Under the pieces are notes generated by a model. The model was not told the DNA's origin and searched no databases. It worked only from the letters and a program-made list of their open reading frames with translations. A DNA stretch of 64,000 nucleotides from Dipteris shenzhenensis (Eukaryota): assembly GCA_047967505.1 (NCBI GenBank), contig CM106538.1; one strand, written 5' to 3'. The position numbers and the translations under genes were made by a program. Of the stretch, positions 1 through 54,572 are shown in pieces. Each line of letters begins with the position of its first letter. Within the stretch, counting starts at the first letter, position 1.

Positions 1-125
1 GGTTTGTATATATTCTACATATTCAACTAAATCTAGCATACAGTTAGTCATTTGTGGTGTACTCTCTAGCTATGCCCTCTCTCCTCATCTCCACTCTTCT
101 CCTCTCCCCTCTTCATATTTTGTCA
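1..125 (+). mobile_element. Right end of an LTR (same family as the LTRs at 45225-45481 and 51822-52076) abutting satellite DNA
   Basis: The reverse complement of 1-125 closely matches TGACAAAATATGAAGAGGGGAGAGG...ATACAAACC at 45225 and 51822. It ends ...TGTCA at 125, and satellite sequence resumes with no PBS. Confidence 0.85.
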
Positions 126-3100
126 TAACACACCTCAAATACTATTTTTTGGTGGTTGTGCATAATACTTGTTGATGAAAAACTGGGTTTGTGCCGACTT
201 TGACCATCCAAAGCATATCTGATGGGCACGATACTTTGCAAGAACCTCAACATAGGTTGTATTGATGTGTGTGAAAAGTATCATGCCCATCAGGTATGAG
301 TGCCTTTGAATACACACCTCAGATACTATTCTTTGGCAATTGTGCATAACACTTGATGAAAAATGGGGTTTGTGGCGTGTTTGGCCATCCAAAGAATATC
401 CGATGGACATGATAATTTTCATGCGCCTCTAATTAGATTATATGAACACATGTGAAAATAATTATTCCCATCGAGTATGAGAGCATTCAAATAATACACC
501 TCAGATACTATTTTTTGGTAGTTGTGCATAACACTTGGTGAAAAATAGAGTGGTGGCATGTTTGATGATCCAAAGCATATCTGATGGGCATGATATTTTT
601 CATGTGCCTCAACATAGATTGTATTAATGTGTGTATAAAGTATTTGCATTTGAATGACACACCTCAGATACATTTTATGGCAGTTGTGCATAACACTTGG
701 TGAAACACGGAGTTTGTGGTGACTTCGACCATCCATAGGATATCTGATGGGCACGATAATTTGGAAACAGATCAACATAGGTAGGATTGACACATGGGAA
801 AAGTATCATGCCCATCATGTGTGTTCACATTTGAATAACACACATAGATCTTGTTTTTTGGTGGTTGTGCATGACACTTAGTGATGAAAAATAGGGTTTG
901 TGGCGAGTTTGACCATCTAAAGCATGTTCAATGATGATACTTTGCACATGACTCAACAAAAGTTAAATTGACATGAGTGCAAGGTTTTATCCTCATCTGG
1001 TATGTGCGCATTTAAATAACACACCTCAAATACTATTTTTTGGTAGTTGTGCATAATACTTGATGAAAAACTGGGTTTGTGCCGACTTTGACCATCCAAA
1101 GCATATCCGAAGGGCACAACACTTTACACACACCTCAACATAGGTTGTATTGACATGTGTGCAAAGTATCGTGCCCATTGGGTATGAGTTGAAATTTGAA
1201 TAACACATGTCAAATACTTTTTTTTTTTGTAGTTGTGCATTACACTTGGTGAAAAATGGGGTTTGTGGTGCATTTGACCATGCAAAGCATATCTAATGGA
1301 CATTATATTTTTCATGCACCTCTAATTAGGTTAGATTAAGATGTGTGCAAAGAATTGTGCCCATTTGTATGAGAGCATTTGAATAATAAACCTTAGATAC
1401 TAATTTTTGCTGGTTGTGCACAACACTTGGTGAAAAACTGAGTTTGTAGCACGTTTGACCATTGAAAGCATATCCGCGATGGTGGGCACAATATTTTGCA
1501 TATGCCTCAACATATATTGTATTGATCTGTGTTCCAAGTATAGTGCCCATAGGTATGAGTGCATTCGAATGACACACCTTAGATACTATTTTTTGGCGGT
1601 TGTGCATAACACTTGGTGAAAAACAGGGTTTGTGGCAACTTTGACCATCCAGAGCATATATGATGGGCACCATACTTTGCATACAGATCAACATAGGTTG
1701 TCTTGATGCATGTGAAAATTATCACGCCCATCGATTATGTGTGCATTTGAATAAAACACCTAAGAGCGTGTCTTTTGGCCGTCGTGCACTCGGGGGGGTC
1801 ACTATGTATAAACCCTCTATATCACGTGCATTCAAGGCCTATATTTAGAATCCCTTATCTGTAAAATATTTTGTTAATAAAATGTACCCCTTTTCTATAC
1901 AAATCCGTAAATTTTTCCCAAAACTATTTTAAATAGTGCCTTATGTATATTTATTTCTGTAAATTTTATAAATAAAAAATATCGTTCTATTGAAGTCACG
2001 TGATAGGGTTACATATGATGAGTGACCCCCCCGAGGTCGTGCATAACACTTGCTGAAAAATGAGGTTTGTGGCAAGTTTGACCATCCAAAGCATATTTGA
2101 TGGGCAAGATACGTTGCACAAGCCTCAAAATCTATTAGATTAAATTGTGTCAAGAGTATCATGCCAATCAAGTATGTGCTTGTTAGAATAAAACACCTCA
2201 AATACTCTTTTTTGGTGGCTGTGCATAACAATTGGTTATGCATTACACACCTCAAATACTGTTTTTTGGCAGTGGTGCATAACACTAAAACGGGTTTTGT
2301 GGTGACTTTGACCATCTAGATCATATACGATGGGCATGATACTTTGAACATGGCTCAAAATAGGTTGCATTGATGAACTTTCAAAGTATCATGCCCATCG
2401 GGTATGTGCGCGCTCGAATAACACACCTTAAAGCATGTTTTTGGCGGGTTGTGCATGACAATTAGTGAAAAATGGAGTTTGTGGCATGTTTCACCAACCA
2501 AAGCATATTCGGTGGGCACAATACTTTGCACAGATCTCCAAATAGGTTTGATTGACACGAATGAAAAGTATCATGTCCATCCAATATGTGCACGTTCGAA
2601 TAACATACCTCAAACTCTATTTTTTGGTGGTTGTCTATAACAAACACTTGATGAAAAATGCAGTTTGCGGGGCGAATTTCACCATCCAAAGCATATGAAA
2701 TGGGCATGATACTTTGCACACAACTCAAAATAGGTTGTATTGATTCACGTGCAAAGTATCGAGCCCATCTAGTATGAGCGCATTTGAATAACACACCTCA
2801 AATATTATTTTTTAACACTTGGAAAAATGAGGTTTGTGACGTGTTTGACCATCCAATGCATATCTCATGCACAAAATATTTTTCATGCACCTCAAAATAG
2901 ATTCTATTCACACTTGTTCAAATCATCTTACCCTTTGGGTAAGAGTGCATTCGAATAATACACCTCAGGTACTATTTCTTGGCGGTTGTGCATAACACTT
3001 GGTGAGAAACCATGTTTGTGGCATGTTTACTATCCAAAGCATATCCGATGGGCATGATATTTTGCACATGCCTCAACATAAGTTCTATTGATGTGTGTCA

Positions 3101-3875
3101 AAAGTCTCGTGACCATTTGATATGAGCACATTCGAATTGACACACCTTAGATACTATTTTTTTGTGGTTGTGCATAACTTGGTGAAAAATGGGGTTTGTG
3201 GTGACTTTGACCATTGATGGGCATTATACTTTGCAAAAAGCCCAAAATATGTTGTATTTATACACATGAAAAGTCTTGTGCCCATCACATATGTGCATGT
3301 TCAAATAACACACCTTAGAGCATGTTTTTGGGTGGTTGTGCATAACACGGTGAAAAATGGGGTTTATGGCAACTTTAACCATCCAAAGCATATCCGATGG
3401 TCATGATACTTTGCACAAGACTCAACATAGGTTGGATTCACATGACTGAAGAGTATCATGCCAATCGGGTATGTGCACATCCGAATAACACACCTTAAAT
3501 TCTATTTTTGACGGTTGTGCACAACACTTGATGGAAAATGGGTTTGTGGCAACTTTGACAATCCAAAGCATATACGATGGGTGCGATAACTTGTACATGC
3601 ATTAACATAGTTTGTATTCATGTGTGTAGAGAGTATCATGTCCATTGGTTATGTGAATGTTCGAATGACACACCTCAAATACTATTTTTTGACGGTTGTG
3701 CATGACACTCGGTGAAAAACAGGATTTGTGGGGACTTTGACCATTGAAATCATATCTGATGGACATGATAATTTGCATGTGCTTTAATCTAGAATTTAGT
3801 GATGCATGTGCAAAGGATCGTACCCATAAATTATGTGCACAATCAAATAACACACCTCAAATATTATTTTTTGGC
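126..3875. repeat. Tandem satellite, ~180-185-bp monomer, about 19-20 diverged copies
   Basis: The motif TAACACACCTCARATACTATTTTT...GTTGTGCATAACACTTG...TTTGACCATCCAAAGCATAT recurs near 126, 310, 491, 836, 1017, 1201, 1384 and 1570, with ~181-186-bp spacing. Confidence 0.93.
1789..2035. mobile_element. MITE (247 bp) with 15-bp TIRs and 8-bp TSD, inserted in the satellite
   Basis: TIRs are CTCGGGGGGGTCACT / AGTGACCCCCCCGAG. The TSD GTCGTGCA lies at 1781-1788 and 2036-2043, and the interior is AT-rich. Confidence 0.9.
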
Positions 3876-3879
3876 TTAA

Positions 3880-4050
3880 TTTTTAGGATATAGTGTATAC
3901 ATAGTATGGTTTAAGGTTTAGGGTATATGATTTAGGGTACAGGTTTTAGGGTTTAAGTTATAGGAAATAGGGTTTATGGCATAGGAATTTGGGTTTAGGC
4001 TATAGGGATTAAGCTATGAGGATTAGGGTTTAGGATTTAGGTATGGGGTA
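3880..4050 (+). repeat. Degenerate plant telomere-like (TTTAGGG) tract
   Basis: GGTTTAGGG, TTTAGGGT, GATTAGGGTTTAGGATTTAGG and related 7-mers occur in tandem. Confidence 0.75.
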
Positions 4051-4683
4051 GAGTTACAAATTATATCGATGCTACCATTTTTAAGGCTTCAATGGGTTTA
4101 AGTATAATTAAACTTCATTCATAGGTTTTTAATAAGCTAAAAACACTTATTTCATTAATTTTGGACTTGTCAATGTACAAATTCATTTTTACATATACTT
4201 TTGGACTAGTTTTCAGATAAAATTTAAGAAAAACCCAATCTTCAAAGCACATATAAAAACATAAAAACAAGCATTTTTTTATATATTTTTTAAGGACATG
4301 AAACTAAAATTATAAAATTTAACGCAATCTAGATAAGTTACATGAAAAAATAAGATTAGGTTGTTGTAAACTCTGTTAATATTTAATGGTGTTAATAAAC
4401 ACCTTCAAAAGTTAAGCCTGAGATAAGTTACACAAAAAAGAGTGGTCCATTAATTGTAAACTCACTTTATATTTATAATAGTGTTTAGGAAACACTTTCA
4501 AAAGTTACAAGTGGAAGTAGCAAACTCTCACAATATTTATAATTTAGGTGTTTAAAAACACCAAAAGTTACAATAAGACTCTCATTGGAAGGCAAATTAC
4601 ACCAAAAGTTACAATAAGACTCTCAGTGGAAGGCAAATTTATTTTCATGACTACAGCCATTCAATTTGATGAATTTTCTATTT

Positions 4684-5118
4684 TCAAGTCCTTAGCCTAA
4701 ATTCAACCCATTCAAGAGCTGAGCTCATCTCATCCTCATCGATGTAGTTAAAATTATAGAAGAGAAGTAAGGATTGATGAATTTTCTCTTGCATAACACT
4801 TTGTTTATTCCGAATGGCTTGCGCTTCCTCGGGGGAAAATCTTCCATAACGAGCCACACGCGAAGATATCTCACTTTGAAAGTCTATCAACTCTCTCCTA
4901 TATGACTGCAATTTATCTATTTCAGTAGTAGCCATACTTATTTTTCTTTCCTCTTCCTTCTCTAGGCCCTTCTGACAAGCAAAGTCATCCTTCTCGTACT
5001 GGGTTAATGGAGCTGGATTTTGCTTTCTCTCCTCTCTCTTTCCTTGGTTCTCGGCAATCCATTCTTTGAGGCTGCTAATGGCTTGCTCGACAGAATCGAT
5101 TACCTTAAAAAGATCCAT
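4684..5118 (-). CDS. Hypothetical ~144-aa charged helical protein (MDLFKVIDSVEQAISSLKEW...VEFRLRT)
   Basis: This is the non-repetitive, protein-like C-terminal part of ORF 4684-5631, with ATG at 5118 and minus-strand TATAAA motifs near 5700 and 5965. No family was recognised. Confidence 0.45.
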   Translation of the reverse strand: MDLFKVIDSVEQAISSLKEWIAENQGKREERKQNPAPLTQYEKDDFACQKGLEKEEERKISMATTEIDKLQSYRRELIDFQSEISSRVARYGRFSPEEAQAIRNKQSVMQEKIHQSLLLFYNFNYIDEDEMSSALEWVEFRLRT

Positions 5119-5119
5119 A

Positions 5120-6160
5120 ATGGCTGCAAGATGAAAGGAGTATGCTTGAGAAGAGGAGGTAAGGCTGCGGGCAAGATGGAAGGAGCAAGCTTGAGGAGAG
5201 GAGTAAGGTAAGAAGAGTAAAGTGGAAGAAGTGTGGAGAGGAGTAAGGTAAGAAGAGTAAAGTGGAAGAAGTTTTTGCTGCGGGTGAGATATAGAAGATG
5301 AACGAGGTGAGGAAGGTAACGAGAGTGAGGAAAGATATAAAAGACTAACGAGGTGAGGAAGGTAACGAGAGTGAGGAAGAGAGTGAGGAAAGATATAGAA
5401 GACGAACGAGGTGAGGAAGGTAACGAGAGTGAGGAAGGTAACTAGAGGAGATAAGGCAAGATGAAAGGAGTATGCTTGAGAAGAGGAGGCAAGGCTGCGG
5501 GCAAGATGGAAGGAGCAAGCTTGAGGAGAGGAAGGAGCAAGCTTGAGGAGAGGAGTAAGGTAAGAAGAGCAAAGTGGAAGAAGTGTCTGCTGCGGGTGAG
5601 ATATAGAAGATGAACGACTACTAGCGGGCAAGATGGAAGGAGCAAGCTTGAGGAGAGGAGCGGGTGAGATATAGAAGATGAACGACTACTAGGGAATTTA
5701 TAGAACTACAGATGCAAGACCGTAATGCGAGATGACTAGATGCAAGATCGTAATGCGAGACATTATAAAATAAAATGATGGGATGCAAGACCGTAATGGG
5801 AGACATTTGAGACATATTAGATAGTGATAGTACATTGAAATCTATAAAGTAAAATGATGGAACACAGGAATGATATAATTAATAGAATCTCATCATGAAG
5901 AGCAAAGTGCAAGAAGTGTCTGCTGCGGGTGAGATATAGAAGATGAACGACTACTAGGGAATTTATAGAACTACAGATGCAAGACCGTAATGCGAGATGA
6001 CTAGATGCAAGATTGTAATGCGAGACATTATAAAATAAAATGATGGGATGCAAGACCGTAATGGGAGTCATTTGAGACATATAAGATAGTGATAGTACAT
6101 TGAAATCTATAAAGTAAAATGATGGAACACAAGAATGATATAATTAATAGAATCTCATCA
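5120..6160. repeat. Mosaic of GA-rich direct repeats plus a ~260-bp tandem duplication
   Basis: Repeated modules include GAGGAAGGTAACGAGAGT, GGAGCAAGCTTGAGGAGAG and GCGGGTGAGATATAGAAGATGAACG. The segment ~5660-5895 is repeated at ~5925-6160. Confidence 0.85.
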
Positions 6161-6448
6161 TGAGATACTTGCTGTACATAATAAATGATAGATTTTGAGT
6201 ACATTGAAATCTATAAAATAAAGTGATGGAACATAAGAATGAATTAGACTTTCAAAAAAGTAAAACCTAATGTATTGTACATAATAAATTAGACTTTCAA
6301 AAAAGTAAAACCTAATGTATTGTAATGAAAAAATATCATAAAATATCCTAATGTATTGCAACATTTAACATAAGTTTTAAAAACACTATCATTAATCGAT
6401 ACAAACAAGATAAAAATCTTCAAGGACTCATGTTTCTTTCTACATGTT

Positions 6449-9400
6449 TTACAACTGAATAGAGTCTGATGAGTTCTCTTGAGGCTGTGATTCTCTAAGA
6501 GTACATTGAGTCTCTACTTGTGTGGATGGTGTACATTGAGATTCTACTTCTGGTGCAATCGGGATAGACTTAATCTCTTCCTCCTTTACAAGATGTGATG
6601 TTGTAGATGCACATTGAGTCTCCACTTCTTGTGTAGGAAGAATGCATTGAGTCTCTAATTCAAGTGGTTCTTCATTGAGTCCATCATGTTGTTTCCCAAT
6701 GATAGCAGTTAGATAGTGAACAGTCTTAGCCACAAAATCTTGTAGCTCGAGCTTGGTATATGCTTCTATGGAGACATGTTCAAAAATTTCATTGAGATAC
6801 AACATGAAGTTGTACGCAATTCTCCACCCACTACTAAACATGTCCTTTTGGTCCACTGCGAGGCGTGTCTGGAAATTTGGTTGGTCTTGATGCTCCCTGA
6901 TTTTCATAATCGCAGAAACTAACTTGTTTGCAGACCTGTCCATCATGACATATGACAAAGTGAATTTGTGTGTAGTAAATAGTAACTTGATGCATGTTCA
7001 TAATGATATGATAAAAGAACACTTACTTGAACACCCCGTGAAAGCCTGTAATTGAGTTGACAAACCAACAATGGTTGTCATCAAGGTCCCATACTATAAG
7101 GCTCCAATGTGAACTACATCACCAATAAAGAGCGATAAGATTTATCACAATATTAAGTATTAATTGACACAATATTGTAAATAAGAGAGTAAAAGAAAGA
7201 TTGACACCATACTTACTTCTCATAGTATGGCATAAAGACAAGTAGTATGCCATCCAAGTCTAAAGGTTGTAGAATTGAACAAACATCATCTACTGTCTTC
7301 TTGGTATCACTAAGTACAGCTGAAAGAAGAGAATCGAGCATACAGACGCGATTCTGTACTGATCTAGGAAAATGAGATATAACCGTACTGCAGCAATAAA
7401 TAAACAAATGTTAGAAGCAGATTGAATCAAATGATTGAAGTATCAAGTCAAGAGATGTTCATATCAAACTTGAGGATGGCCATCATGACTTTGTCATTAG
7501 CCTCTTTCAAAGGGTCGGAGAGGATTGTAACTTCCTCGCTACCAAAAGTCAAAACACGAGGTTGCTTGCTAATGATGACCTTAACCTCAGAAGAGCTCCC
7601 CATTTCGTCCAATACAGCGGTTACATCAGGACAACTTATGGGCGTAGCAACCAATGTTTCCTCTGGATGCTCCACCACGTTATCAATAAATGCCTTAATG
7701 ATAGATGACATAAATGCCTGCAGATGCAAGTCTGTATATGTGGACAATGAGGTTTCACCGCCTCTCAAATCAAAAATTTGAGCAAGGAGCAAGAAGCAGT
7801 TATATCCAACTCTCCACCCACAACTGTGGTCATCATTCTGCTTTGCTGCAGGGCATGTTACATACTCTATTTGATCTTCCAAGTCACCCTCCATTTGCAT
7901 AAGTGCATCTATAGCACTTACCAACTTTCGAGCAGATCTACACATCAAAATAGAAAACATAAATGAATGTGTGTATTGCATAGGATGCATCTCATTGACA
8001 TAATTATGACACAAGTAGGTTATACTTACTCTGACACACTGCCATGGATAGATGCTATTGAATTGACAAAGAAGCATTGCTTGGCTAAGATGTCCACAAT
8101 TACCAAGCTCCAATGCAAGCTGCATTATCAATTAAGAATAATTATTATTTGATATAATCCTCCACAATGTAAGAGATAAGCTAGGTAGGGATTGATACTC
8201 ACTCTTCGTGATATGCGGTAAAGATAACTCGCGCCGCAGTCAAATCAATAGGTTGCAACCACTTAAAAATGTCATCTATGGTCTTCTCCTTATTGCTAAG
8301 TACACTAGAAACAAGAGGATCGACCATATATGCACATCTTTGTATATATAGCGAAAGCTGTTGTAAAACCATACTGCAATAAAAAGAAAAGAATATTAGT
8401 TCATTTGATCCAATGGAAATACAAAAGCATAAAGTCAGTAAAAAGTTTGTGTCAAACCTGAGGATGGCTATTATAACCTTGTCATTGACCTCTTTCTTGA
8501 AGTTTATGAGGATTGAAATATCCTCTTCATCGAATATAAAAGTAAGAGGTTGTTCTCGAACTTGAAACCTAACTTGAAATGACTTCTCCATTTGCTGCAA
8601 TGTATGATTATTTTCTAGAGTCATCCGATGGATAGCCAGAGCAGCTTTGCTTTCTTGAGATGAGCTTTCATGATTCTCTGCTCCAACTATGTCCTCCTCA
8701 TCCTCCTCCTCTCCCTTCTCCTATAAAAGGATAAAATAATTATGAGATTCAAAATTTTAAATTAATTATAAATTTAAAAAGACCTTTAAATGAATAAAGA
8801 AAATTAAACATAAGTCTTCATACCTCTACATATCTTCGTGGTCTTTTTATGTAACCTTCAGAGGCAAGGTCAGTGTCATATCCATCTTCCTCTGCTTCCT
8901 TGCTATTGCTGGTATCCTCACTATTATATCCAGAGCTTTGATCATTTTCATCATCTTTCTTGCTCTCATCGTACATGATCTGCTCTATGTCATCCTCTTC
9001 ATGTGAGATTGGACCTTTCTTATCAAACTTTATTGTGAGAGAAGCCACGGTATCAAGGTATTCCAAGCAAGCAGGGCTCTCAATAATATTTACATTGTGT
9101 CCTTTTCTGATAAGAGCTTCGAACAGATGTCCCATTCGGCACAATGTGACTTCCCATCCAGGCGGTAGCAAAAATTCCATCATACTAATTAAAAGATCAG
9201 CACTTTTTGCTGGCCTTTCATAGTGATTTGCATTGCGATGGAGGGGACTTGGAGCTTCATGCTCTTCCAACAGTAGTTGCAATCTCTTTGCATTCCCTCT
9301 TATATTGTTTTGTAAGGAGTGATCATTATAAGGGCTCTTCATGCACAAGAAAAAGGTTTCCAGACTCTGTATCTTGAGACCGCATTCTCTCTTGTCCCTT

Positions 9401-12225
9401 TTTCTTGAGTATATCCCATTGTAAATCTTGAGCTCATTGCCATATTGTTTTTCTAGGGTAGCAGACATTTGTTCCTTGTCATCTTTATCAGCAAATATGA
9501 CTATATTACATTGTCCCACTCTACCAATGGTGGTATGTAATATTCTGTCAAGGAGTGGACGGATGTCATCCGCTGATATTTCATAGACAAAGAAAAGCTG
9601 AGGTCTCTCCCAAGCAGTGTCGTCGGACAAAAAATCACTCAATGAAACTCCCTTGCACTCAACACTCTTTCCAGACTCTGAAATGATTTCATGTATGAAA
9701 TAAAAGCCCTTGTTCAAAGTCTTTTCTTTTCTGAGAGTGTGGTTGTTGATGACTTTTTGTGCATATGCATACACATTTTCCGGAATGTCATTTCTCATAG
9801 AGGGAGTAATTTCAGATCCATCATCTTCTACTTTCACCCATTTATGCGCCCAAGCCTTCTGTTTAGCTGACGGTAAAGCTGATGCCATCTGCCTCACAAT
9901 GTTATGATCAATTTTACATTGGCTGATTGGAATATTTTTTTCTCCCAATAAATATTCAATTGCACTCTTTACTGCATCACGCTTCACCTGTTGGATGATG
10001 TTATCTTCCATGCAATGATCTTTATCCTTTTTGCCAAAAAACCATTCTTTTGACATTAATTTCTCTGCAGCAAGACTTGCGTATTTATCTGGTAGGTTTC
10101 TTAAAGGCCTCCACATCCGAGCTGTCATCTCTTTTTTCTCAATCTTCTTTGCCTTCTCTTTAATCAATGATGGAGCCTCATATGTAACATCTCCTTTCTC
10201 ACATGCAAGACACACGTCTTTGATCTGATGAAAAACTTAATCACTACGGAAAAGTATGCTTGTGTAGTCTTGATACCTATCCCTTACTGTCTTGAAGCTT
10301 GTAATCACCTCAGCTCTTTCCTGCTTTCCCCTTGGTACAATGGCACTCAAGCATGTGTAGAAGTCAACAAGATTATCCGCTTCCACTTTAGTTGCAGTTC
10401 TTTTGAGAGTGGTCAAAGGAGAATTAAAAGTTTTCCATATGGTCCTAGCTTTGAGCAACATCTCTGAAGTGGAGGTGATTTTTCGTAGTGCATAAATGTC
10501 ATGATTAAGTCTTTCCGACTCAATCAAATATTTCTTCTCGTTCTTGAAGATACAAATGCATGCAGAATAGTAGTGAAATTGAGGCACACTCGCGAAAGTT
10601 TGATAAGTAATTTCTCCTTTCTTGTATGCATCTCTAGAGCGCTCATTACAAGCATAGGCATAGTGCTGACCATCTATTGCCTCAAATGTACAATGAGCTA
10701 AGAAATTTCTCTTGGCATCCCTTATATGTCGTTCTGGATCATTCACTGAACTCTGTCCTTCTTGAAGTGAGGGAACTTGTTTTCCGAGGAACTTAGTGAA
10801 TTGCATCTCAAAATCTATAGGCTGAGAGAAATTGATGGATTGACTATAATCTCCCATGACTGGCCAAAATGTTCTTGGACGGAGTACCAAATTAGAAACA
10901 ACTGGTTTTTTTCCATCAATCAAAGCCTGAAAAATCTTTTCAGCATAGGCTGTATCTAAGGTCCTGCTGTTGGTGAAGACACTTGCTTTGACCACTGATG
11001 AAGCATGTATAACTTGAGTCTTCTGGCCCCATATATATCCTGGATCCTCATCTGTCACAGCCTCATTCAAGCGAAGATTTAGGTTCTTCATTGATAACAT
11101 TTCTGCTTCTAGATCTGACTCCATTTCAAGACCCTCCGCATCCTCTTCATGTTCTTCCTCTTCTCTTCTTTGCCCTTTCTTTGTATATGAACGACCTCTT
11201 TTTCCAGTTATAGGACTTGGAACTGTAGCTCGTGAAGTACTTGCCTTTTGCATTTGACGTCGAGGTTTATTTTTTAGGGGCTCAATGTGAACTGCTTTAG
11301 ATCGCCCTACTTCTTCTTCTATTGCCTCAACTTCAGGTATACTTAAGGGCTTCACTTGTTCTGTTATTCCATCAACTTCATGAGTTACACCATCTAAGTG
11401 AGTAATACCATGAACAAGAGATGTGTGTGCATGTCCTGTCTTATCTGATGCATGTCGTGTCTCACTCAATTCAATTTCTGTTTGAGATGCATGTGCATGT
11501 CCGGTCTCCACCAATTCAATTCCTGTCTCAGATGTAGATCCCTTGTAAGCATCCACGTGTACAAGACCCTCATCCATTGCTACAATGTGTTCTGTCTCAT
11601 CCACTCCACTTCCTCTCTCATTTGTATTACCATGAACCAAATCTACATGGCGTGTCTCATCACTTCCTTTCTCATGTGTGGATTCTTGCACCTTAGGTCC
11701 CTCCAATGAAGTTGAACCTTGTTGGATGACACCCTGAAAGTATTCAAGGATAATCTTTGACTGCATTTTTCTTGCTTCCTCAATGGGAAATTCCTCCCAC
11801 ACATGTTGAAGGATCTCCAATGCAGGAACCAATTCAGGAAATCTAGGTGCTTTTGGCGGCGGCATCACAAAGTGCATTGCATCTTTCTTAGAAAGAAGAA
11901 ACGATCTGTTGCTCATTCTTGACTTTGTGTAAATCATCATTGTAGTGCTGTCTTTTTCAATTTTTATTCCTACTAAGGTGCCCCCTTGAATCAAATTGCT
12001 CTTGGAGAAAGATACATTTGATGCGCACTCATCTTTCTCCAACTCTCTCTTTGTCATCACTAGAATGAGATTTCCTTTACTTAAGACCAAGAACCATGCT
12101 TTCTTTGTTGTGTCAACAACTGTCCAGTTTGTGAAGTCCTTTGGGGCATAAATTCTTCCATTGTATTTCAGTGTCATACCATTGACAAATGCTGTAGCCT
12201 CAAGATCCATCCTGTATTCAAGCAC
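6449..12225 (-). pseudogene. Large spliced gene with one in-frame stop: ParB/Srx-like + inactive N4/N6 DNA-MTase-like + two Ulp1 (peptidase C48)-like domains
   Basis: ORFs 10237-12225 and 8818-10215 share a frame and are separated by a single TAA. GT-AG introns at 8721-8823 and 8374-8457 preserve frame into the Ulp1-like exons. Motifs: FEAIDGQH, RPAKSADLL...PPGWEV...GHNVNIIE, LHWSLVIVD, QNDDHSCG, SHWSLIVWD, QKDMFSSG. Confidence 0.7.
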
Positions 12226-12339
12226 AACACAAATTTTAAGTACTTTGACAAACTACAATTACTTTGAAAAATCAAAAGTACAATGAGTCCCATTAATACA
12301 CCTCCAGTTTGTATTCTTCCCAATCATATAAGTATCAAT

Positions 12340-14620
12340 TTCATGCTTTGGGAATAGCCTAAAAGGCTTTACAAGGCTTAGAGCATAAATGCTTTGGGAA
12401 TAGCCTAAAAGGCTTTACAAGGCTTAGAGCATAAATGTGAAAAAAAATAAGGATTTACAATGATCTCTGAATACAAATTTGAAGTTTGTCATATATAAGT
12501 ACAAAATGCTCTGTCAACTCCCGCAACTGATATAAGTGTAAAATGCTCTGTCAACTTCCACAACTGTAATCTGTCATGTCCACTGATACAACTTTCAATC
12601 ATCTTGAAAGTTTAAAAACCTTAATCGTTGCTTAAATGGTAGGGTTGTTGTGACTGTGAAACCGAATGTGAATGTGAACGAATGGACTGACTCCGATTAG
12701 GAACTAGTCGGGAAATTTTGAGCATGGCTTTGATTGGTTTTTTTGGAGTTCTCTCCTCTAAGGACAAACTAATCTATGCTAATCTAGACTACACCAACCG
12801 TCGAAGCGAAGAAAAGCAAGAAATAATTTCTTTTCCATTGTTCTTTTTAATATCCTTAGGTTGCGAATTAAAAGCAAAAAATAATCTTTCCATTATTCTT
12901 TTTAATACACTAAGGTTGTGAGTTTAAAAAAGATAAAATTTATATTTTATCTTTTTTAAACTCACACCCCTTTCTCTCTCTCTCTCCCCCCCTTCTCTCC
13001 CCCCCTTCTCTCTCGCTGCCGCCCTCATCCTCCCACCCCACCTTCCCCATTCTCACTCCCACGCCCACGTCCATTCTTTCACCTTCCCCATTTCCACTCC
13101 CTCTCCCACTCCCATCCTCCCACCACTTTCTCTCTCTCTCCCCCCCCATTCTCTCTCGCTGCCGCGGCAGCGACCCCCCCTTCTCTCTCTCTCTCTTCTC
13201 CTTCTCATTTTAAAAAAGATAAAATTTATATTTTCAAAAACTAATTTACTTACAACTCATAAGAATTGAACATTCACATTATCCTCCCACCCCTTTCTCT
13301 CTCTCTCCCCCCCCATTCTCTCTCGCTGCCGCGGCAGCGACCCCCCCTTCTCTCTCTCTCTCTTCTCCTTCTCATTTTAAAAAAGATAAAATTTATATTT
13401 TCAAAAACTAATTTACTTACAACTCATAAGAATTGAACATTCACATTAATAAGAAGTTAAAATCTTAATAAATTTGAATTTATATAATAAAAACTATAAA
13501 GTAGTTTAACTTAAAGTTTATGAAAAAATAATGTAAAATAAAGAAAACAAGACTTAAAATTAAAATTTTAATATTTACCTAGAAGAATATATTAATTCTC
13601 CCTAAAAAGAAATAAATTAAAGTAATAATAACGAATATTCTCCCTAAAAAGAAATAAATTAAAGTAATAATAACGAATGTAAGTTAAACTACTTTTAAAA
13701 TTTTAATTTAAAATGTAATAAAATTAAAATTATACTCTTTATATTCCAAAACAAAATGCATTATAGTCTAAATTAAACTAGTAAATTAAAAATGAAAGTG
13801 AAACTCATTTTAAATTCAAAAACAAAGAAAAATTTAAAATTGAAGTTTCTACAAGTTTTGCTTTTAGCATACATTTGTCTTTTCACATCCAGGGGTTTGT
13901 CTTTTGAAACACAAGGTTGTCTTTTATCACAATTTTCACATCCACGCGTTTGTCTTTTGAAACACAAGGTTGTCTTTTATCACAATTTTCACATCCACGC
14001 GTTTGTCTTTTGAAACACAAGGTTGTCTTTTATCACAATTTTCAAGTTTTCACACGTTTGTCTTTTCAAACACAAGGATTCAAGTGAGAAATTTTGAAAT
14101 TCTAGTTTCCACACGTTTCTCTTTTCAAACACCAAGGTTTGTCTTTTCAAACACAAGGATTCATAGTTTAAAAAAAGGCGGGAAATTTTGAAATTCTAGT
14201 TTCCACACGTTTCTTTTTCAAACACCAAGGTTTGTTTGTTTAAGTTTCGACTAAATCACACACCAATCTTCTCTAATATGCCTCATTGATCGTAGCTCCC
14301 AAATTCTTCCATCAAAACATCTCTCCTTTATCTCTTCTTGATCGTCGCCCACTCATTTTTTCTCCTCATTGGTAAGATTTTTTATCTCGATCGTACTTTC
14401 TCTTGTGCCCTTCCTCTCTAAATTTTCATCAAACACCAAGGTTTATAGTTTTGTTTGTTTAAGTTTAGACTAAATCACATACCAATCTCCTCTCATATGC
14501 CTCATTGATCGTAGCTTCTTCATCTTGTCTCGATCGTCGCCCACTCATTTCTCCTCTTCATTGGTAAGATTTTCTATCTCGATCGTACTTTCTCGTGTCC
14601 TCCCTCTCTAAATTTTCATC
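12340..14620. repeat. AT-rich region with several short tandem duplications (probably intronic)
   Basis: Duplications include a ~45-bp unit twice at ~12344-12435, ~13125-13280 repeated at ~13293-13447, and a 42-bp unit twice at ~13596-13678. GTTTGTCTTTTGAAACACAAGGTTGTC occurs three times at ~13895-14040, and a ~200-bp unit twice at ~14230-14620. Confidence 0.8.
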
Positions 14621-14699
14621 TCTCTCACTCTTCTCTCTCTCTCTTTCCTCTCCGCTCTAGTCTACGTTTCCTCTCATCTTAGTCTACTCTCTCCCCTCC

Positions 14700-16905
14700 T
14701 CTTCATTTCCCCTCTCTCTCTCTCTCTCTCTCTTCCTTTCTCCTCACCTTTTTCCTCTCTCACTTGCGCTCCCCACTCTCCTCTCCACTCTCTCTCTCAC
14801 TTGCCGCGATCTCCCCCCCCATCCCCTCTCTCTCTCTCCTCCCCCTCTCTCTCTCTCTCTCCACCCCTCCCTCTCTTTCGCTGCCGCGGCAGCGGCCCCT
14901 CCCTCCTCTCTCTCTCTCCCTCCCCCTCTCTCTCGCATCTCCCCCCTACTCTCTCTCCCCGCCCCCTCCTCTCTCGCTGCCGCGGCAGCGGCTCCCCCTC
15001 TCTCTTCCCTCTCCCCACCCCTTCCCTCTCCCCCTCTCCCCCTCTCTCTCTCCCTCCCCTCTCTCTCGCTACCCCCCCTTCTCTCTCTCCCCCCCTCCCT
15101 CTCTCGCTGCCGCGGCAGCGGCCGCGGCCCCCCCCCTTCTCTCTCTCTCCCCCTCCCCTCTCTCGCTCCCTCCGCCCCCTCCCTCCTTCCCTCTCCCCCC
15201 CCTCCCCCTATCTTGCTGCCGCGGCAGCGGCCGCGGCCCCCCCCCTTCTCTCTCTCTCCCCCTTCCCTCTCTCTCGCTGTCCCCGGCCGCTCCCCCCTTC
15301 CTCTCCCCCCCCTCCCCCTCTCTCGCTGCCGCGGCAGCGGCCGCGGCCCCCCCTTTCCCTCTCCCCCCTCTCTCGCTCCCCGGCCCCCCCCCCCTTCTCT
15401 CTCTCTCCCCCTTCCCTCTCTCTCGCTGCCCCCGGCCCCTCCCCCTTCCCTCACCCCCCTCTCTCGCTCCCCCCTTCCCTCTCCCCCCCCCCCCCTCTCT
15501 CGCTGCCGCGGCCCCCCCCCTTTCTCTCTCTCCTCGCCTCCCTTTTCCCCCCCCCCTTCTCTCTCCCCTCCCCTCCCTCTCTCGCTGCCGCTGTCGCGGC
15601 AGCGGCCCCCCCCCCTCTCTCTCTCTTCCCCCCCCTTCCCTCTCTCCTCCCCTCCCTTTCCCCCCCCCCTTCTCTCTCCCTCCCTCCCTCTCTCGCTGCC
15701 GCTGCCGCGGCAGCGGCCCCCCCCTCTCTCTCTCTTCCCCCCCTTCCCTCTCGCTGCTCCCTCTCCCCCCCCTCCCCCTCTCTCGCTGCCGCGGCAGCGG
15801 CCGCGGCCCCCCCCTTTCTCTCTCTCCTCGCCTCCCTTTCCCCCCCCCTTCTCTCTCCCCTCCCCTCCCTCTCTCGCTGCCGCTGCCGCGGCAGCGGCCC
15901 CCCTCTCTCTCTCTTCCCCCCCCTTCCCTCTCTCCTCCCTCCCTTTCCCCCCCCCCTTCTCTCTCCCCTCCCCTCCCTCTCTCGCTGCCGCTGCCGCGGC
16001 AGCGGCCCCCCCTCTCTCTCTCTTCCCCCCCTTCCCTCTCGCTGCTCCCTCTCCCCCCCCTCCCCCTCTCTCGCTGCCGCGGCAGCGGCCGCGCCCCCCC
16101 CCCCTTTCTCTCTCTCCTCGCCTCCCTTTCCCCCCCCCCCTTCTCTCTCCCATCCCCTCCCTCTCTCGCTGCCGCTGCCGCGGCAGCGGCCCCCCCTCTC
16201 TCTCTCTTCCCCCCCCTTCCCTCTCTCCTCCCCTCCCTTTCCCCCCCCCTTCTCTCTCCCCTCCCCTCCCTCTCTCGCTGCCGCTGCCGCGGCAGCGGCC
16301 CCCCCCCTCTCTCTCTCTTCCCCCCCCTTCCCTCTCGCTGCCCCCTCTCTCCCCCTTTCCCTCTCCCCCCCTCCCCCTCTCTCGCTGCCGCTGCCGCGGC
16401 AGCGGCCCCCTCCCTCCCCTCTCCCCCTCCCCCTCTCTCGCTGCCGCGGCAGCGGCAGCGGCCCGCTCCCCTCCCTCTCCCTCCTCCCTCTCACCGCCCC
16501 CCTTCTCTCTCCCCCCCCTTGCCCCCCCCCCCCCCCCTTCCTCTCCCTCTCCCCCCTCCCCCTCTCTCGCTGCCACTGCCGCGGCAGCGGCCCCTCCCCT
16601 CCCTCTCCACCCTCGCCTCCCCTCCCTCTTCCCCCTCTCTATCCCCGCCCCCCCCTCCCTCTCTCGCCGCCCCCCCTCCCTCCCCCCCTCTGCGTTGCCG
16701 CGGCAGCGGCCTCCCCCTCCCCTCTCTCTCTCCCCCCCCTCGCTGCTTCTCCCCTCTCTCCCCTCTCTTTCCCCCTTCCCCTTCTCTCCCCCCTCCCTTT
16801 CTCTCCCCTCTCTTTCCCCCCCCTTCTCTCGTCTCTCTCCCTCTCTCTTTCTTTCTCTCTTTTGCTGCCGAGGCAGCAAGACTCTCTCTCTTCTTTTCTC
16901 TCTCT
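14700..16905. repeat. Polypyrimidine (CT-rich) minisatellite punctuated by the palindrome CGCTGCCGCGGCAGCG
   Basis: About 18 exact or variant palindrome copies are spaced ~50-130 bp apart in C/T-only spacers. Two more copies lie at ~13156 and ~13323. Confidence 0.9.
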
Positions 16906-16969
16906 AAAAATCTATCCTTCACTTTTCTCTCTTTATAATAAAATTTCAAAGAATACAAATTTTAAAAAC

Positions 16970-17110
16970 AGTACCTGGAAAAAGTTGAAATCGATGCTTG
17001 TGCTTGCTTTTGCTCTTCCTCCTCTTTTTGCTTCTCCTCTTGCTCTTCCTTGTTGAAATGAGAGAAACAATGAGAGAAGGAGAGTATATATAAGAAAAAC
17101 TAGGGTTTTG
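16970..17110 (-). promoter_or_regulatory. Candidate promoter and first non-coding exon of the minus-strand fusion gene
   Basis: On the minus strand there is a telo-box AAACCCTA (~17101-17108), a TATATA (~17085-17092) and a donor-like CAG|GTAC at ~16975. The link to the gene is inferred only. Confidence 0.35.
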
Positions 17111-17189
17111 AGTGCTTCTCTCTCATTGGTCCTTCTATAACATTATCTCCTCTCCCATTGGCCTCTCTATTAGATTATCTTCTCTCTCT

Positions 17190-18070
17190 CTCCCACCCAC
17201 TCCCATCCTCCCACCCCACTCTCACTCCCATCCTCCCACCCCACCTCCCCCATTCTCACTCCCACGCCCACGCCCATTCTTTCACCTTCCCCATTTCCAC
17301 TCCCTCTCCCACTCCCATCCTCCCACCCCACCCCTCCCACTCCCACCCTCACTCCACCCCCACCTCCCCCATTCCCACTCCCACTCCCACTCCCATTCTC
17401 CCACCCACTCACATCCTCCCACCTACACGTCTAATTCCCCTCCCCATCCTCCCACCCCACCCCTCCCCCCCCCATTCCCACTCCCACTCCCATTCTCCCA
17501 CCCTTATCCTCCCACCTCACCCCTCCCACTCCCTCCTCCCACTCCCTTTTTCCCACCCCCCCACCTCCCCCATTCCACTCCCACTCCCATTTTCCCACCC
17601 CCCCCACCTCCCCCACTCCCACTCCCTCCCCCATCCTCCCACCCCACCCCTCCCACTTCCACCCCCACCTCCCCCATTCCCACTCCCATCCTCCCACCTC
17701 ACCCCTCCCACTTCCACCCCACCTCCCCCATTCCCACTCCCTCTCCCACTCCCATCCTCCCACTCCCACTCCCCACCCCACCCCTTCCACTCCCACTCCC
17801 ATCCTCCCATCCTCCCACCCTCACCCCACCCCCACCTCCCCCATTCCCACTCCCACTCCCACTCCCACTCCCACTCCCACTCCCATTCTCCCACCCCCAC
17901 CTCCCCCATTCCCACTCCCTCTCCCACTCCCACTCCCACTCCCATTCTCCCACCCCCACCCCCACCGCCCCCATTCCCACTCCCTCTCCCACTCTCCCTT
18001 TCTCCCACTACCACCCTCCCACACTCCTTTCTCCACTTTCCCACTCTCCCTTTCTCCCACTACCACCCTC
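17190..18070. repeat. (CCCACT)n-like C-rich low-complexity tract (G-rich minus strand)
   Basis: Tandem CCCACT/CCCATT/CCCACC units; perfect CCCACT run at ~17847-17885. Confidence 0.9.
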
Positions 18071-18149
18071 CCAACTATCAATTCCACTATTACTTATAAA
18101 TTCTAATTAAAACTATTACTTAAATAAATGATATTACTTGAAAACACTC

Positions 18150-18614: not shown

Positions 18615-18714
18615 NNNNNNNNNNNNNNNNNNNNNNNNNNNNNNNNNNNNNNNNNNNNNNNNNNNNNNNNNNNNNNNNNNNNNNNNNNNNNNNNNNNNNN
18701 NNNNNNNNNNNNNN
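18615..18714. other. Scaffold gap (100 N)
   Basis: Run of N; adjacency across it is not supported by sequence. Confidence 0.99.
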
Positions 18715-19825: not shown

Positions 19826-22800
19826 CTCCAAGTGACTGCAGCACTCCCAAAAGTCCACTGGTAGATCCGTCCCCTATCCAGAAATACTACCAGCCCAATC
19901 AGCATCAGTGTATCCATGCAACTGTATCTGGACCCCAGCCTCATAAAAATAGTCCAATACTTGCAATGTGGACTTCACATACCTGAGTATGCGTCTAGCC
20001 GCATCTCAAAATGCGGTTTCCTTGGAGCCTGCATAAACTGACTTACCAACCCAACAGCATAGCTCAAATTTAGCCTGGTAATAGTCATGTAAATCAAGCT
20101 TCCTACTATGCGTCTGTACATAGTAGGGTCCTCTAGAAGCTCACCTGCATCTGCGCTCAGCTTCACATTCTGCTCCAAAGGAACTGAAATATGCTTACAG
20201 CCTGTCATCCCATATTTGGATAGCATGTCCAGTCCATACTGCCTCTGCAAGTGCTGTATCCCACTTGGTGATCTAATCACCTCAATGCCCAAGAAATAAC
20301 GCAGCTCTCCCAAATCCTTCATCTCAAACTTATGCCTCAATAGCATTTTCACATGAAGGATATCTTCATCACTATCACCTGTGATGATCAAATCATCAAC
20401 ATAAATGACCAGCAGCATAATCCCTTTCTCTGTTTTTCTCACATAGAGTGAGAAATCTGCCTTGGAAATCTGAAAGCCAATAGTGACAAGATATTGTCCT
20501 ATCTTGTCAGACCATGCTCTAGGTGCTTGCTTCAAGCCATACAAGGCTTTCTTCAACCTGCAAACGAACTCGGGATGAGTAGCATGAACATAACCTGCTG
20601 GCTGCTCCATAAAGACCTCTTCTTGCAAATCACCATGCAAGAAGGCATTCTTTACATCCATCTGATGTAAAGACCATCCCTTTGATGCAGCCATAGCAAT
20701 GGCTGCTCTTACGGTTGCCATCCTTGCAACCGGGCTGAAAGTTTCTTTATAATCAATGCCATATGTCTGTGCATACCGCTTGACAACTAATCTTGCCTTG
20801 TATCTATTCACAGAACCATCTGCATTGTGCTTGATCTTATAAACCCACTTACAACCAATTGCATTCTTGCCTTTAGGCAAAGGCACCAATTCCCATGTAG
20901 CATTAGCATCCAAGGCATCCATTTCTTCATCCATGGCTTTCTCCCATTTTTCGTTTCCCATGGCTTGCTCAAAAGAAGTGGGTTCTAGTTCCTGTATCAC
21001 TTTGACCATATAGGCATAGTGAATGGCTGTAAATCCATCATATTTCAGCCTATCCACAGGATACCTAACCCTGGTAGACCTGCGCAAAATAGGCTCACTT
21101 CCAGGTGCTCTCAAAACATCCCTGGTCTTCCTTACTCCAGGTGTAACAACAGAAGGAATACCCAACTCATCATCAATGCTCTGTTCTGAGCCACTGGATT
21201 CACCATCCACACAAGAGTGACCTGCATTCACATCATACATGGGCTGATCTACCTTCTCTTTTCCTTTTCATGATACCTGCGTACCACTCTCTGCATTGCT
21301 TTGAGGGGATTCTCCTGATCTCAATCTGCCTGTCCATGGCGAAGTATGTGAACCACTGGTAGAGGACACTCCAGGTCCACTGATATTTTGTGATTGCTGC
21401 TGTGCATTCTGTGCAGCATTACCATTTTGTGCATCTACATCAATCATCACATTTACTGGTTTATACCAGCTGCTTTATACCAGCTGCTCATCTCATCAAA
21501 AACAACATCTCTGCTCACTGTGAACTTACGTGTAGAAGGGTTATAGCATCTATACCATTTCTGCTGCAGAGAATAACCAATAAAGACGCACTTCTCAGCT
21601 TTTGGATCCAACTTGGACCTCAACTCATCTGGCACATGGACATAGGCAATGCAACCAAAAATCTTCAAATGAGAAATATCTGGTTTCCTACCAGTATACA
21701 TCTCCTCTGGCGTCATGCCATGTATTGCTGCAGTGGGAGTCCTGTTCATTATATAGACTGCTGTAGCAACTGCTTCAGCCCAATAATAATCTGGTAGATC
21801 TTTTCATTTAGCATAGCCCGAGATACCTCTCCAATATGCCTGTTTTTTCTTTCTGCAATTCCATTTTGCTGTGGGGTATGGCTGCATGAATATTGCTGCT
21901 TTATACCATGCTCCTGCAAGAACCTTGCAAACTCATTTGAGAGGTACTCTCCCCCTCCATCTGACCTTAGGCATTTTATTTGCAGGCCTGTTTCTTTTTC
22001 AACCATAGCTTTGAAAGCTTTGAAGTGCCCAAACACTTCACTTTTCTTTTTCATAAAATACACCCACAGTTTTCTGCTGAAGTCATCAATAAATGTGACA
22101 AAATAGTGACAGCCTCCAATAGATGCAGCTTTTGTAGTCCACACATCAGAGTAGATTAATTCCAATGGCTTTTTACTCTCTTGAACATGCCTAGGAAAAG
22201 GTTTCCTTACCTGTTTCCCAAATTGACAAGCTTCACAAACCTTGTGCATTTCTACAACCTTGAATTTAGGCAATCCTACAACAACATTTTGGGCTTGCAT
22301 TGATTTAAGTCACTGTATATTAACATGACCAATGTGTTTGTGCTAGATATCAATATCTGCAACTACACCGGTCCCATGTGCAAACATTGCTGCACTCAAT
22401 TCAAGCATGTCCGCATCCAACGTAAATATCCTGCTCTTCTTCTTTCCTTTTGCTATCAAGCGACCGTTATTTTTCATATCCTCAACAAAGCATCCATGAG
22501 GATTAAATCTAACCTGCAAGCCCTGCTCAACCATCTGACCAATAGAAACCAGGTTCTTGGTGATGTTCGGGACATGAAATACATCAGACAAGTATTTCTT
22601 TTTCCCATCCTGCATAGACAAAGGAATTTTGCCAATCTGCATAATAGGATGTGCAGTATCATCACCAGTCTCCACAAATCCTGGCTTTTCCATCTTCCTT
22701 ACATCTTGCATCCATTCTGCATGACCTGTCATGTGGTTTGACGCACCTGAGTCAACATACCACACATAATTTTGTTCTTCTGCACTTGTCACAGAATTGA

Positions 22801-29600: not shown

Positions 29601-30858
29601 CAGTTACAGTTTACTCCCAGGATGCAGAGTGCCTCTTGCAGATGAGGATGAGGCTATGCATGGTGAGGAGGATACCTTGGCTAATGATGCCCGGTATGAT
29701 CCATTGGCTGGTTATGCCAGGACAGATGTGGTTTCTGCAGTTATTGACTCGGGTCATATTGCGCATGGGTAGGAATCATTGATATGTTTGCTTCGTAAGT
29801 GCCTTCATGGCCAAAAGCAATCCCCTTGAGCTTGGCTTCATAGGTTTGATACCGTTATGAGAGCTCAGGATGTGATGCACAGTGAGACAGGTTATGGTCT
29901 TAGTATTCAGGAGGTTGCTATCCTTCTGAGGTTACTTGCCATATGGTTCCTTATGGACAGGGATGCTTTGAAGTGGGAGCTGCATGGTCTTGATGATGTT
30001 TGTCAGATACTTGGTTGTTTCAGTATGGAGAGGGGGAAGTTATTGAGTACTCCATTGCCTGTATTGGCTCCATACTTGAAACACTGCAGGTTTGACGATC
30101 ACAGATCAGTTGAGCAGCAAGTTATGGTTGATATGGCAGCCATAGTACTCCATGCATCCATGACTGTGTTGAGACTTGGTTCTCACATGTTTGCCATTGG
30201 GGCTACACTTCCGGTTCTTGCTTCTGTTGCAGTGGGAGTTGGTAGCATGATTATGGCAGATTTTGGCAGTAGGGAAGCGGTTGTGGACATCAAGTCCTTA
30301 TGCTTCCAGGAGCAGCATGCAGGTGATGTATGCAGGTGATGTAGGTTGGGTAGACTAGCAGAGGTCTATTGTAGGGCATGTGCTTATGGTCACAAGTGGT
30401 ACAGAGACATTTTCTTTACACAGTGATAGTTCAGGTGCTATGGACTTAGCACAGGAGCACGTGGTGGTGAGAGTTCACTCTCCCAGTGAGATCTAGCATG
30501 AGATCTTGGTTGACAGGCATCTACAGCTTGTCATTTTCTATCCTGCAAACCTGATATCTGCTAGCAGCTTATCCTCTATGCACTTTGCACATTGTAAAGT
30601 GCCGATGGGCATAGGATGACGGTGTGGTCATCTTGTTTTTCAGCCTATGGCTGATTGTATTATATGTGTACCTTACTCCCTTAAAGGCACACTGCCTTTA
30701 AGTGGGAGGTTGTTGGGGTAAAGGGCAGTGTGCCCACCCACTTGTACAGTGCCCATGTATACTCATATATATATATGATAGAGGAATAAGCTGGAGTAGC
30801 TTTTGCTCCACCACTTTTGGTGTCTCCTATCCCTTTGTGTGTGCTCTCCTCTCTCACA
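26639..30858 (+). mobile_element. 3' part of a non-autonomous copia element, family 2 (degenerate gag/PR/IN, RT largely lost, 3' LTR 30711-30858)
   Basis: Gag MASTAGSALFDIERLDGSNFQYWK, protease-like WMLDPCAS and integrase LVHSAVCGP...YWAEA are present. PPT AAGTGGGAG precedes a 148-bp TG...CA LTR. Confidence 0.88.
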
Positions 30859-54535: not shown

Positions 54536-54572
54536 TATGGGCTTGGAGTCCTATGCAAGGAGTGTGTGACTG

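Follow-up and report, generated by a model that had tools for sequence, protein, structure and literature searches.

The locus described here raises the question of whether a eukaryotic protein can carry a beta-class DNA methyltransferase fold stripped of its catalytic motifs, as an initial annotation had proposed from peptides matched by eye. The window (the whole 64-kb stretch of DNA analyzed) is eukaryotic and rich in copia elements, sequencing runs labeled algae metagenome match it, and the surroundings of the locus consist of satellite DNA, low-complexity DNA, and copia elements.

A reading frame interrupted by one stop codon

A motif check placed all seven peptides quoted in the initial annotation on the minus strand, where they span 9076-9651: GVSLSDFL (9628-9651), PQLFFVYEIS (9574-9603), GQCNIVIFAD (9487-9516), LKIYNGIYSRK (9400-9432), SLETFFLCMKS (9334-9366), RPAKSADLLISMMEFLLPPGWEV (9148-9216), and LFEALIRKGHNVNIIES (9076-9126). 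The candidate beta-class methyltransferase-like fold to which they belong occupies 9031..9672 on the minus strand (ORF aa 182-395, corresponding to model residues 33-246) and lies within a listed 465-aa ORF (8818..10215, minus strand). This ORF has a helical region near its N terminus (aa 44-149) with homology to the protein P0002, then an alpha/beta domain, and then an acidic tail. A 662-aa ORF lies upstream in the same frame, separated from the 465-aa ORF by a single TAA (10237..10239, minus strand; X658 of the read-through product). This upstream part of the reading frame (10240..12210, minus strand) has 657 codons, counted from the ATG at 12210 up to the TAA, seven sense codons (10216-10236, minus strand) lie between the TAA and the start of the listed 465-aa ORF, and the read-through product of both ORFs is 1,130 aa long, with 1 stop in 1,130 codons.

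We read the TAA as a premature stop rather than a recoded codon, because the copia ORFs of the window gain no length under the alternative code (table 6, TAA/TAG=Gln). A tiny intron excising the TAA was also considered and rejected; the sole in-frame GT..AG span is 27 nt, versus 103 nt for the neighboring intron. Since the TAA sits upstream of the domain, the allele in the window may be disabled. Downstream, the frame probably continues across that neighboring GT..AG intron (8721..8823, minus strand), as the TGA of the 465-aa ORF lies inside the GTATGA donor, and the acidic tail goes on (EKGEEEDEED...) in phase 0 in a predicted exon 2 starting at 8720.

In a comparison with contig X1, which is 98.8% identical, 16 of the 26 changed codons among the differences listed (to 10002) were synonymous and 10 were nonsynonymous; the synonymous share expected is 27%, and the excess among these differences is significant (P = 2.3e-4). 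Both 3-nt indels among them (8701 and 8990) keep the frame. Because synonymous changes exceed expectation against X1, we conclude from this pair of sequences that the 465-aa part is under purifying selection. No inverted or long direct repeats bound the region 3900-13300, no terminal inverted or long terminal repeats were found at the locus, and tblastn detected no second copy of the protein within the 64-kb window.

The candidate domain in sequence searches and structure models

A search of 1.84 billion representatives returned a single detectable homologue of the domain region, an unnamed protein (P0001) matching aa 204-443 with an E value of 1.2e-13 and 28% identity. The blocks kept between the ORF and P0001 coincide with those picked in the initial annotation; because the same blocks are conserved, they are real conserved features as judged from these two sequences, and so is the domain. 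Regular-expression searches of the 1,130-aa read-through product and of P0001 found neither [DSN]PP[YFWH] nor F.G.G (in YhdJ, used as the positive control, DPPY is at residue 40), which bears out the earlier observation that DPPY/SPPY and FxGxG are absent. The position aligned to DPPY reads YEIS in the ORF and NELQ in P0001, the position aligned to FxGxG reads CRMGH and YQMGF, respectively, and the presumed beta2 strand still ends in an acidic residue (NVNIIE in the ORF, NVNVID in P0001), as in IGIE. Both motifs are missing in both family members, and their loss would therefore be older than the divergence of the two. A Toprim-like reading of the segment FFVYE...IVIFADKDD was dropped, as its DxD is not conserved in P0001.

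Pfam hmmscan at E ≤ 1 and E ≤ 10 gave no PF01555 (N6_N4_Mtase; gathering score, 26.7 bits) row for the ORF, the domain alone, the read-through protein, or P0001, and NCBIfam and PHROGs gave nothing linking the domain to N6_N4 methyltransferases. With an HMM built here from 80 beta-class methyltransferases, hmmsearch --max and hmmalign yielded no alignment and no score, and a six-frame scan of the window found nothing below an E value of 2. Comparison of the ORF and P0001 with the same 80 enzymes by hhalign gave a probability of 0.3%, at the low power of a query profile of just 2 sequences; of 100 column-shuffled controls each, 28 reached the score in local and 12 in global alignment, so the match is no better than that of shuffles. 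Neither the 465-aa ORF nor upstream aa 385-662 retrieved homologous proteins in a further search, nor were related loci found in metagenome and viral contigs with the two-sequence alignment as the query. When metagenome contigs were scanned with a degenerate DNA pattern of the GW.V.L..MG block, 2 matches came up, which were dismissed as chance, their flanks being dissimilar. The ESM Atlas gave no usable match for the domain, and the sole match of the ORF alone in a PDB sequence search was a lipoprotein (E value, 0.26). In a PDB profile search, the best match was chloroplast uL4 (E value, 0.024), which scored above any methyltransferase; we take it as a chance match, with the acidic tail partly behind its score. 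By any sequence criterion, the domain is not a member of PF01555. Of the collinear match to the N6_N4_Mtase pattern, what stands is that the peptides exist and are conserved, but in sequence terms the match itself does not exceed chance, and its support comes from a structure model of low confidence.

When that AF2 model of the domain was aligned with 48,161 PDB representatives by VIA-align, ranks 1-8 and 10-13 were taken by beta-class DNA amino-methyltransferases or MT-A70 proteins. Alignments with these top matches comprised 135-172 residues and ran across model residues 5-252. All 8 PF01555-type representatives in the PDB, defined as those found by sequence with YhdJ (6pbd, 8urk, 1eg2, 1g60, 5hek, 8s9n, 1boo, and 2zie), were within the top 12; SAM-dependent methyltransferases made up approximately 27 of the top 50, and chains of the MTA1 complex were also among the matches. 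For M.RsrI, which has DPPY at 65-68 and FAGSG at 250-254, the motif mapping of the initial annotation implies model-to-chain offsets of +3 (beta4) and +39 to +42 (motifs X, I, and II), and the ends of the VIA alignment give +3 (33 to 36) and +41 (246 to 287); for M.BceJIV, the mapping implies -4 and +29 to +31, versus -3 and +33 at the alignment ends. The register suggested by the model thus agrees with the motif mapping for both enzymes. For the first model, VIA returned only generic beta-alpha-beta matches, and Foldseek on the second model returned nothing at E ≤ 0.001.

Flanking parts of the protein

In the upstream part (10240..12210, minus strand), an N-terminal region is followed by a middle of low complexity, rich in acidic residues and His, and by a C-terminal domain at approximately aa 385-657 that contains IDGQH. 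Searches of Pfam, NCBIfam, and PHROGs (E ≤ 10) and PDB sequence searches were all without a match to this part. In the ESM Atlas, the nearest neighbors of aa 385-662 were fungal DUF3723 clusters (score, 0.95; 169-170/256 features), and the ten best family-bearing matches all share a family or clan with the top one; we treat this as a lead only. The PF12520 (DUF3723) HMM gave no row at E ≤ 10 for the upstream domain. For the ParB/Srx-fold DGQHR group (Pfam ParBc/DndB, NCBIfam DGQHR, and the DGQHR motif), Pfam, NCBIfam, and PHROGs gave no match at E ≤ 10, and the sequence reads IDGQHY. The possible ParB-likeness of the region comes from a four-residue motif spotted by eye.

Downstream of the domain, exon-like pieces (6449..8720, minus strand) appear, from frame translations read by eye, to contain two tandem, diverged copies of a Ulp1/C48 cysteine protease-like unit, which form a direct repeat at 990-nt spacing. 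The first unit reads H...D...Q..HSCGW and the second FSSGW (Cys to Ser); a His, Asp, Gln, Cys pattern (THSF, AIDAL, KQND, HSCGW) was seen by eye in 7448-8131. Searched unjoined, these exons had no Pfam match at E ≤ 1 and no PDB sequence match, and their Ulp1 label is a motif reading by eye.

Readings of the domain and known methyltransferases

We consider the chance about even that the domain is a non-catalytic methyltransferase-fold module. If the AF2 model is correct and the resemblance is due to common descent, the domain would most likely derive from the beta-class (circularly permuted) N6A/N4C DNA methyltransferase fold. The eukaryotic nuclear protein that carries it is large, with at least 1,130 aa, and lineage-restricted, and the domain sits in it between an upstream domain that is DUF3723-like in its language-model features and the downstream Ulp1-like protease exons. 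With the (D/S)PPY loop of catalysis and the FxGxG loop of AdoMet binding both lost, a domain of such descent would be incapable of methylation and could act as a non-catalytic DNA/chromatin-binding module or scaffold. The annotators' view of an inactive methyltransferase derivative is in keeping with the two missing motifs and with the beta-class enzymes being the best matches of the AF2 model, but no sequence statistic speaks for it.

It is quite possible, if short of an even chance, that this is instead an alpha/beta (Rossmann-like) domain specific to the lineage and not related to DNA methyltransferases, in which the by-eye motif match and the low-confidence AF2 topology are coincidental or come from AF2 defaulting to a common methyltransferase-like arrangement; however, a chance topology is unlikely to place 8 of 8 PF01555-type representatives in the top 12 of 48,161 with 135-172 residues aligned, or to reproduce the register that the motif mapping had independently predicted. 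It is very improbable that the domain is an active methyltransferase of DNA or RNA whose motifs are unconventional; the conserved acidic residue at the presumed beta2 end and the one glycine kept in the presumed motif I loop (RMG/QMG) would fit such an enzyme, but (D/S/N)PP(Y/F/W/H) and the glycine-rich loop are missing in both family members, the DPPY-aligned position reads YEIS or NELQ, and the characterized beta-class enzymes compared here all keep both motifs.

Whatever its fold, the locus could also be a decaying pseudogene or mobile-element relic without present function, which we regard as unlikely but worth serious weight. An in-frame TAA that no alternative code explains splits the 1,130-codon frame, the Ulp1-like units downstream are degenerate tandem duplicates (in the second, Ser replaces Cys), the neighborhood is made of satellite, low-complexity DNA, and copia elements, and plant transposons often carry Ulp1-like domains. 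Against decay, the 16:10 synonymous excess (P = 2.3e-4, among the differences listed) and the frame-preserving indels point to recent purifying selection on the 465-aa part, there is a single stop in 1,130 codons, and the locus has neither terminal inverted nor long terminal repeats and no second copy in the window.

A more far-reaching version of the module reading, which we consider improbable, is that the host lineage domesticated a phage-type fusion of a ParB-like domain and a beta-class N6/N4 methyltransferase, that both active sites decayed, and that the product was retained under selection as a non-catalytic DNA/chromatin platform fused to a Ulp1-like (SUMO-type) protease, its upstream domain being distantly related to the DUF3723 of fungal Starships. 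ParB-N6_N4 methyltransferase fusions are described in part of PMC12704722 as a common phage and prophage architecture, and the order from ParB-like domain to beta-class fold would match here if the IDGQH region is ParB/DGQHR-like. DUF3723 (PF12520) is an auxiliary gene family of the Starship giant transposons, and its function is stated as unknown in passages of PMC9156397, bioRxiv 10.1101/2025.02.28.640899, and PMC11162782; the host here is not a fungus, and the likeness is limited to language-model features of the upstream domain and does not extend to the methyltransferase-like domain. Domestication of this kind would provide a first structural/functional handle on DUF3723, and the eukaryotic chromatin proteins defined by it would form a new, pseudo-methyltransferase class. 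Should the fold assignment itself hold, a bacterial-type beta-class fold would have been kept in a eukaryote without its catalytic residues and beyond sequence detection, a beta-class pseudo-enzyme joined to a Ulp1-like protease would point to a new chromatin or genome-defense factor, and by-eye motifs combined with structure prediction would be able to recover homology missed by HMMs; should it fail, the locus would be a near-orphan gene interrupted by a premature stop and of no more than local interest.

Among known systems, the best structural matches of the model, over approximately 140-170 residues, are the beta-class N6-adenine/N4-cytosine methyltransferases (PF01555: M.RsrI 1eg2, M.MboIIA 1g60, M.PvuII 1boo, CcrM 6pbd, and YhdJ), with which its predicted elements are collinear (strand with the DPPY position, helix, strand, helix, hairpin, helical insert, helix-strand-helix-strand) and share an acidic residue ending the presumed beta2 strand. 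Neither HMMs nor profiles show the domain to be similar to them, however; it lacks both DPPY and FxGxG and is embedded in a eukaryotic multidomain protein of at least 1,130 aa. The bdelloid rotifer N4CMT (8s9n) and the Marchantia 4mC enzyme are active, have intact motifs, and are found by sequence, whereas the domain here has neither motif. To our knowledge, the known eukaryotic uses of the beta-class DNA methyltransferase fold are such active enzymes, and the known dead methyltransferase domains all come from other clades. Passages of PMC4738411 give METTL14 and the MT-A70 subunits of ciliate MTA1c (7f4l, 8xyl) as inactive methyltransferase folds, along with a dead domain in DIRS1 retrotransposons and a second, inactive domain in fungal clade-4 proteins, and describe such folds as staying under selection after losing both catalytic and cofactor residues, presumably as binding modules or scaffolds. 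These inactive partners and domains fall into the MT-A70, PCIF1-like, or Dam-like clades, and sequence searches still detect them, whereas the domain here escapes such detection; in role, METTL14, the inactive MTA1c subunits, and the dead DIRS1 domain may be its closest analogues.

The reading frame and its surroundings

The initial annotation placed a catalytically dead beta-class N4C/N6A DNA methyltransferase-like domain at 9075-9655; this stretch lies on the minus strand inside an open reading frame (ORF) of 465 amino acids (8818..10215(-)), and all seven of the listed peptides were found between 9076 and 9651. The ORF is in frame with a 662-aa ORF (10237..12225), with only a TAA (10237-10239) and seven sense codons between them, and the frame read through the TAA gives 1,130 residues from the ATG at 12210. 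As genetic code table 6 (TAR=Gln) did not lengthen the copia ORFs in the window, recoding of TAR as Gln was ruled out and the TAA is best read as a premature stop; judged from its sequence, the window copy is interrupted. Just upstream of the presumed ATG are a 46-nt perfect tandem duplication (12343-12434) and a 37-nt tandem duplication that is 89% identical (12493-12566).

The terminal TGA of the 465-aa ORF sits inside GAG|GTATGA, and a candidate GT..AG intron of 103 nt (8721-8823, minus strand) would link the ORF, in phase 0, to an exon extending the acidic tail. That exon runs on into two tandem diverged units (6449-8720, minus strand), spaced about 990 nt apart, which by eye look like Ulp1/C48 protease domains interrupted by introns, with HSCGW in the first and FSSGW in the second (Cys to Ser); this label found no match in Pfam or among PDB sequences. 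No inverted or long direct repeats bounding the locus and no second copy of it within the window were found.

The upstream domain (residues 385-662 of the 662-aa ORF, with residues 385-657 placed at 10240-11055(-)) contains IDGQH, which we take to be reminiscent of the ParB-fold DGQHR motif. ParB-likeness was unsupported by Pfam, NCBIfam, PHROGs or PDB sequence searches; according to the cited passages, ParB-N6_N4 methyltransferase fusions are common in phages (PMC12704722). The nearest ESM Atlas features were fungal DUF3723 clusters (score 0.95), and in Pfam searches the domain was unmatched by the PF12520 (DUF3723) HMM. DUF3723 is described in the passages cited as an auxiliary gene family of fungal Starship transposons, function unknown (PMC9156397, bioRxiv 10.1101/2025.02.28.640899, PMC11162782). 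We treat both likenesses as leads only.

The window is eukaryotic; among the public sequencing runs containing the stretch, two carry the label 'algae metagenome'. Several LTR retrotransposons of the copia type, oriented both ways and with RVT_2, rve, gag and Pol_BBD matches, lie at 19975-24650, 28600-35520 and 54570-60200, with fragments near 40600-41430 and 46750-47590; their mutual identity of 94-99% suggests recent activity. A satellite array of more than 15 copies of a ~181-nt unit (60-86% identity) occupies 1-3900, a C/T-rich, GC-rich (60-64%) low-complexity block of extreme strand skew, with spurious long ORFs on both strands, covers 12950-18100, and an assembly gap of 100 N starts at 18615 (18615-18714). 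A 315-aa ORF (4684-5631(-)), without a Pfam match, carries internally repeated Ser/Leu/Pro-rich segments and then a charged C-terminus, probably coiled-coil.

Conservation and selection

Searching all 1.84 billion representatives with HMMER gave two homologues of the 465-aa ORF at E<=0.001, both unnamed: P0001 (269 aa, E 1.2e-13, 28% identity), covering residues 204-443, and P0002 (138 aa, E 2.6e-7), covering residues 44-149. The blocks conserved with P0001 (FF..E, V.F, K.Y.GI, IQ.L..F..C..S, Y..P, GW.V.L..MG and G.NVN.I..P) coincide with those listed in the initial annotation.

A 3,577-nt contig from a sequencing run, 98.8% identical to the locus and spanning 8640-12213, differs from the window by 42 substitutions. 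Of the differences listed, which reach as far as 10002, 30 lie within the ORF and affect 26 codons, 16 changed synonymously and 10 non-synonymously, where the observed transition/transversion mix predicts a synonymous share of 27% (binomial P=2.3e-4); two 3-nt indels (8701, 8990) keep the frame. Together, the synonymous excess and frame-keeping indels argue for recent purifying selection on the 465-aa part. The domain is real, selected and almost orphan. The differences from this contig are unevenly spread, with 31 substitutions in 8816-10002 and only 11 in 10003-12213; allelic recombination or gene conversion, or a difference in constraint, could account for this.

Sequence and structure tests of the methyltransferase reading

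All sequence tests of the by-eye methyltransferase match were negative. PF01555 gave no Pfam match at E<=1 or E<=10 for the ORF, the domain, P0001 or the read-through product; nothing was found for this reading in NCBIfam or PHROGs, and the ESM Atlas held no usable match for the domain. Our own set comprised E. coli YhdJ, its relatives and 80 loci encoding YhdJ/CcrM-type enzymes, with identities as low as 30%; the 80-sequence alignment and HMM took YhdJ and 79 loci, leaving out one translation shorter than 200 aa. With this HMM, neither the window domain nor P0001 obtained a score in hmmsearch --max, and hmmalign aligned practically no columns. In hhalign, the window and P0001 matched the 80 enzymes with a probability of 0.3% over 22 non-collinear columns; column shuffles scored at least as well as the real profile in 28/100 (local) and 12/100 (global) trials. 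With just two family sequences for this region, such profile tests have limited power. Searched against PDB sequences, the two-sequence profile found no methyltransferase (best match chloroplast uL4, E 0.024).

The single-sequence fold of the whole ORF (pLDDT 36) yielded no methyltransferase in the top 50 of the VIA structure search, only generic beta-alpha-beta matches to residues 204-279. Folded with the two-sequence alignment, residues 150-410 reached pLDDT 41.7 and pTM 0.43 (pLDDT 57-73 for residues 41-115). Foldseek, a check proposed by the initial annotation, returned nothing significant for this model against the PDB. In a VIA search of 48,161 PDB representatives, the same low-confidence model placed all eight PF01555-type representatives (those that YhdJ finds by sequence) within its top 12 matches, and about 27 of the top 50 were SAM-dependent methyltransferases. 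For M.RsrI, with DPPY at 65-68 and FAGSG at 250-254 of the PDB chain, the by-eye mapping leads one to expect offsets between model and chain of +3 and +39 to +42; those seen at the two ends of the structural alignment are +3 and +41; M.BceJIV agrees within 2 residues, and the C-terminal end of CcrM is off by about 9. The model's likeness to beta-class amino-methyltransferases is specific and in register, though the model is weak and unbacked by sequence statistics.

Ancestry and likely role

The proposed match finds support in the low-confidence structure model and fails in Pfam, our own HMM and hhalign. Methyltransferase ancestry is plausible, if unproven; we give even chances to true descent from the beta-class fold. 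That the region is instead an unrelated alpha/beta domain strikes us as somewhat less probable.

Should the fold assignment hold, the domain would be non-catalytic, because the DPPY position (YEIS in the window, NELQ in P0001) and the FxGxG position (CRMGH or YQMGF) are replaced in both family members. The reported motif loss was borne out: neither [DSN]PP[YFWH] nor F.G.G occurs anywhere in the protein, and the control YhdJ has DPPY and FAGSF. The co-option of bacterial-type N4C methyltransferases in bdelloid rotifers and Marchantia, stated in the initial annotation, agrees with the literature consulted and with PDB entry 8s9n. A non-catalytic domain would most likely act in binding or scaffolding, by analogy with the role described, in the passage cited, for inactive methyltransferase-fold proteins (PMC4738411).
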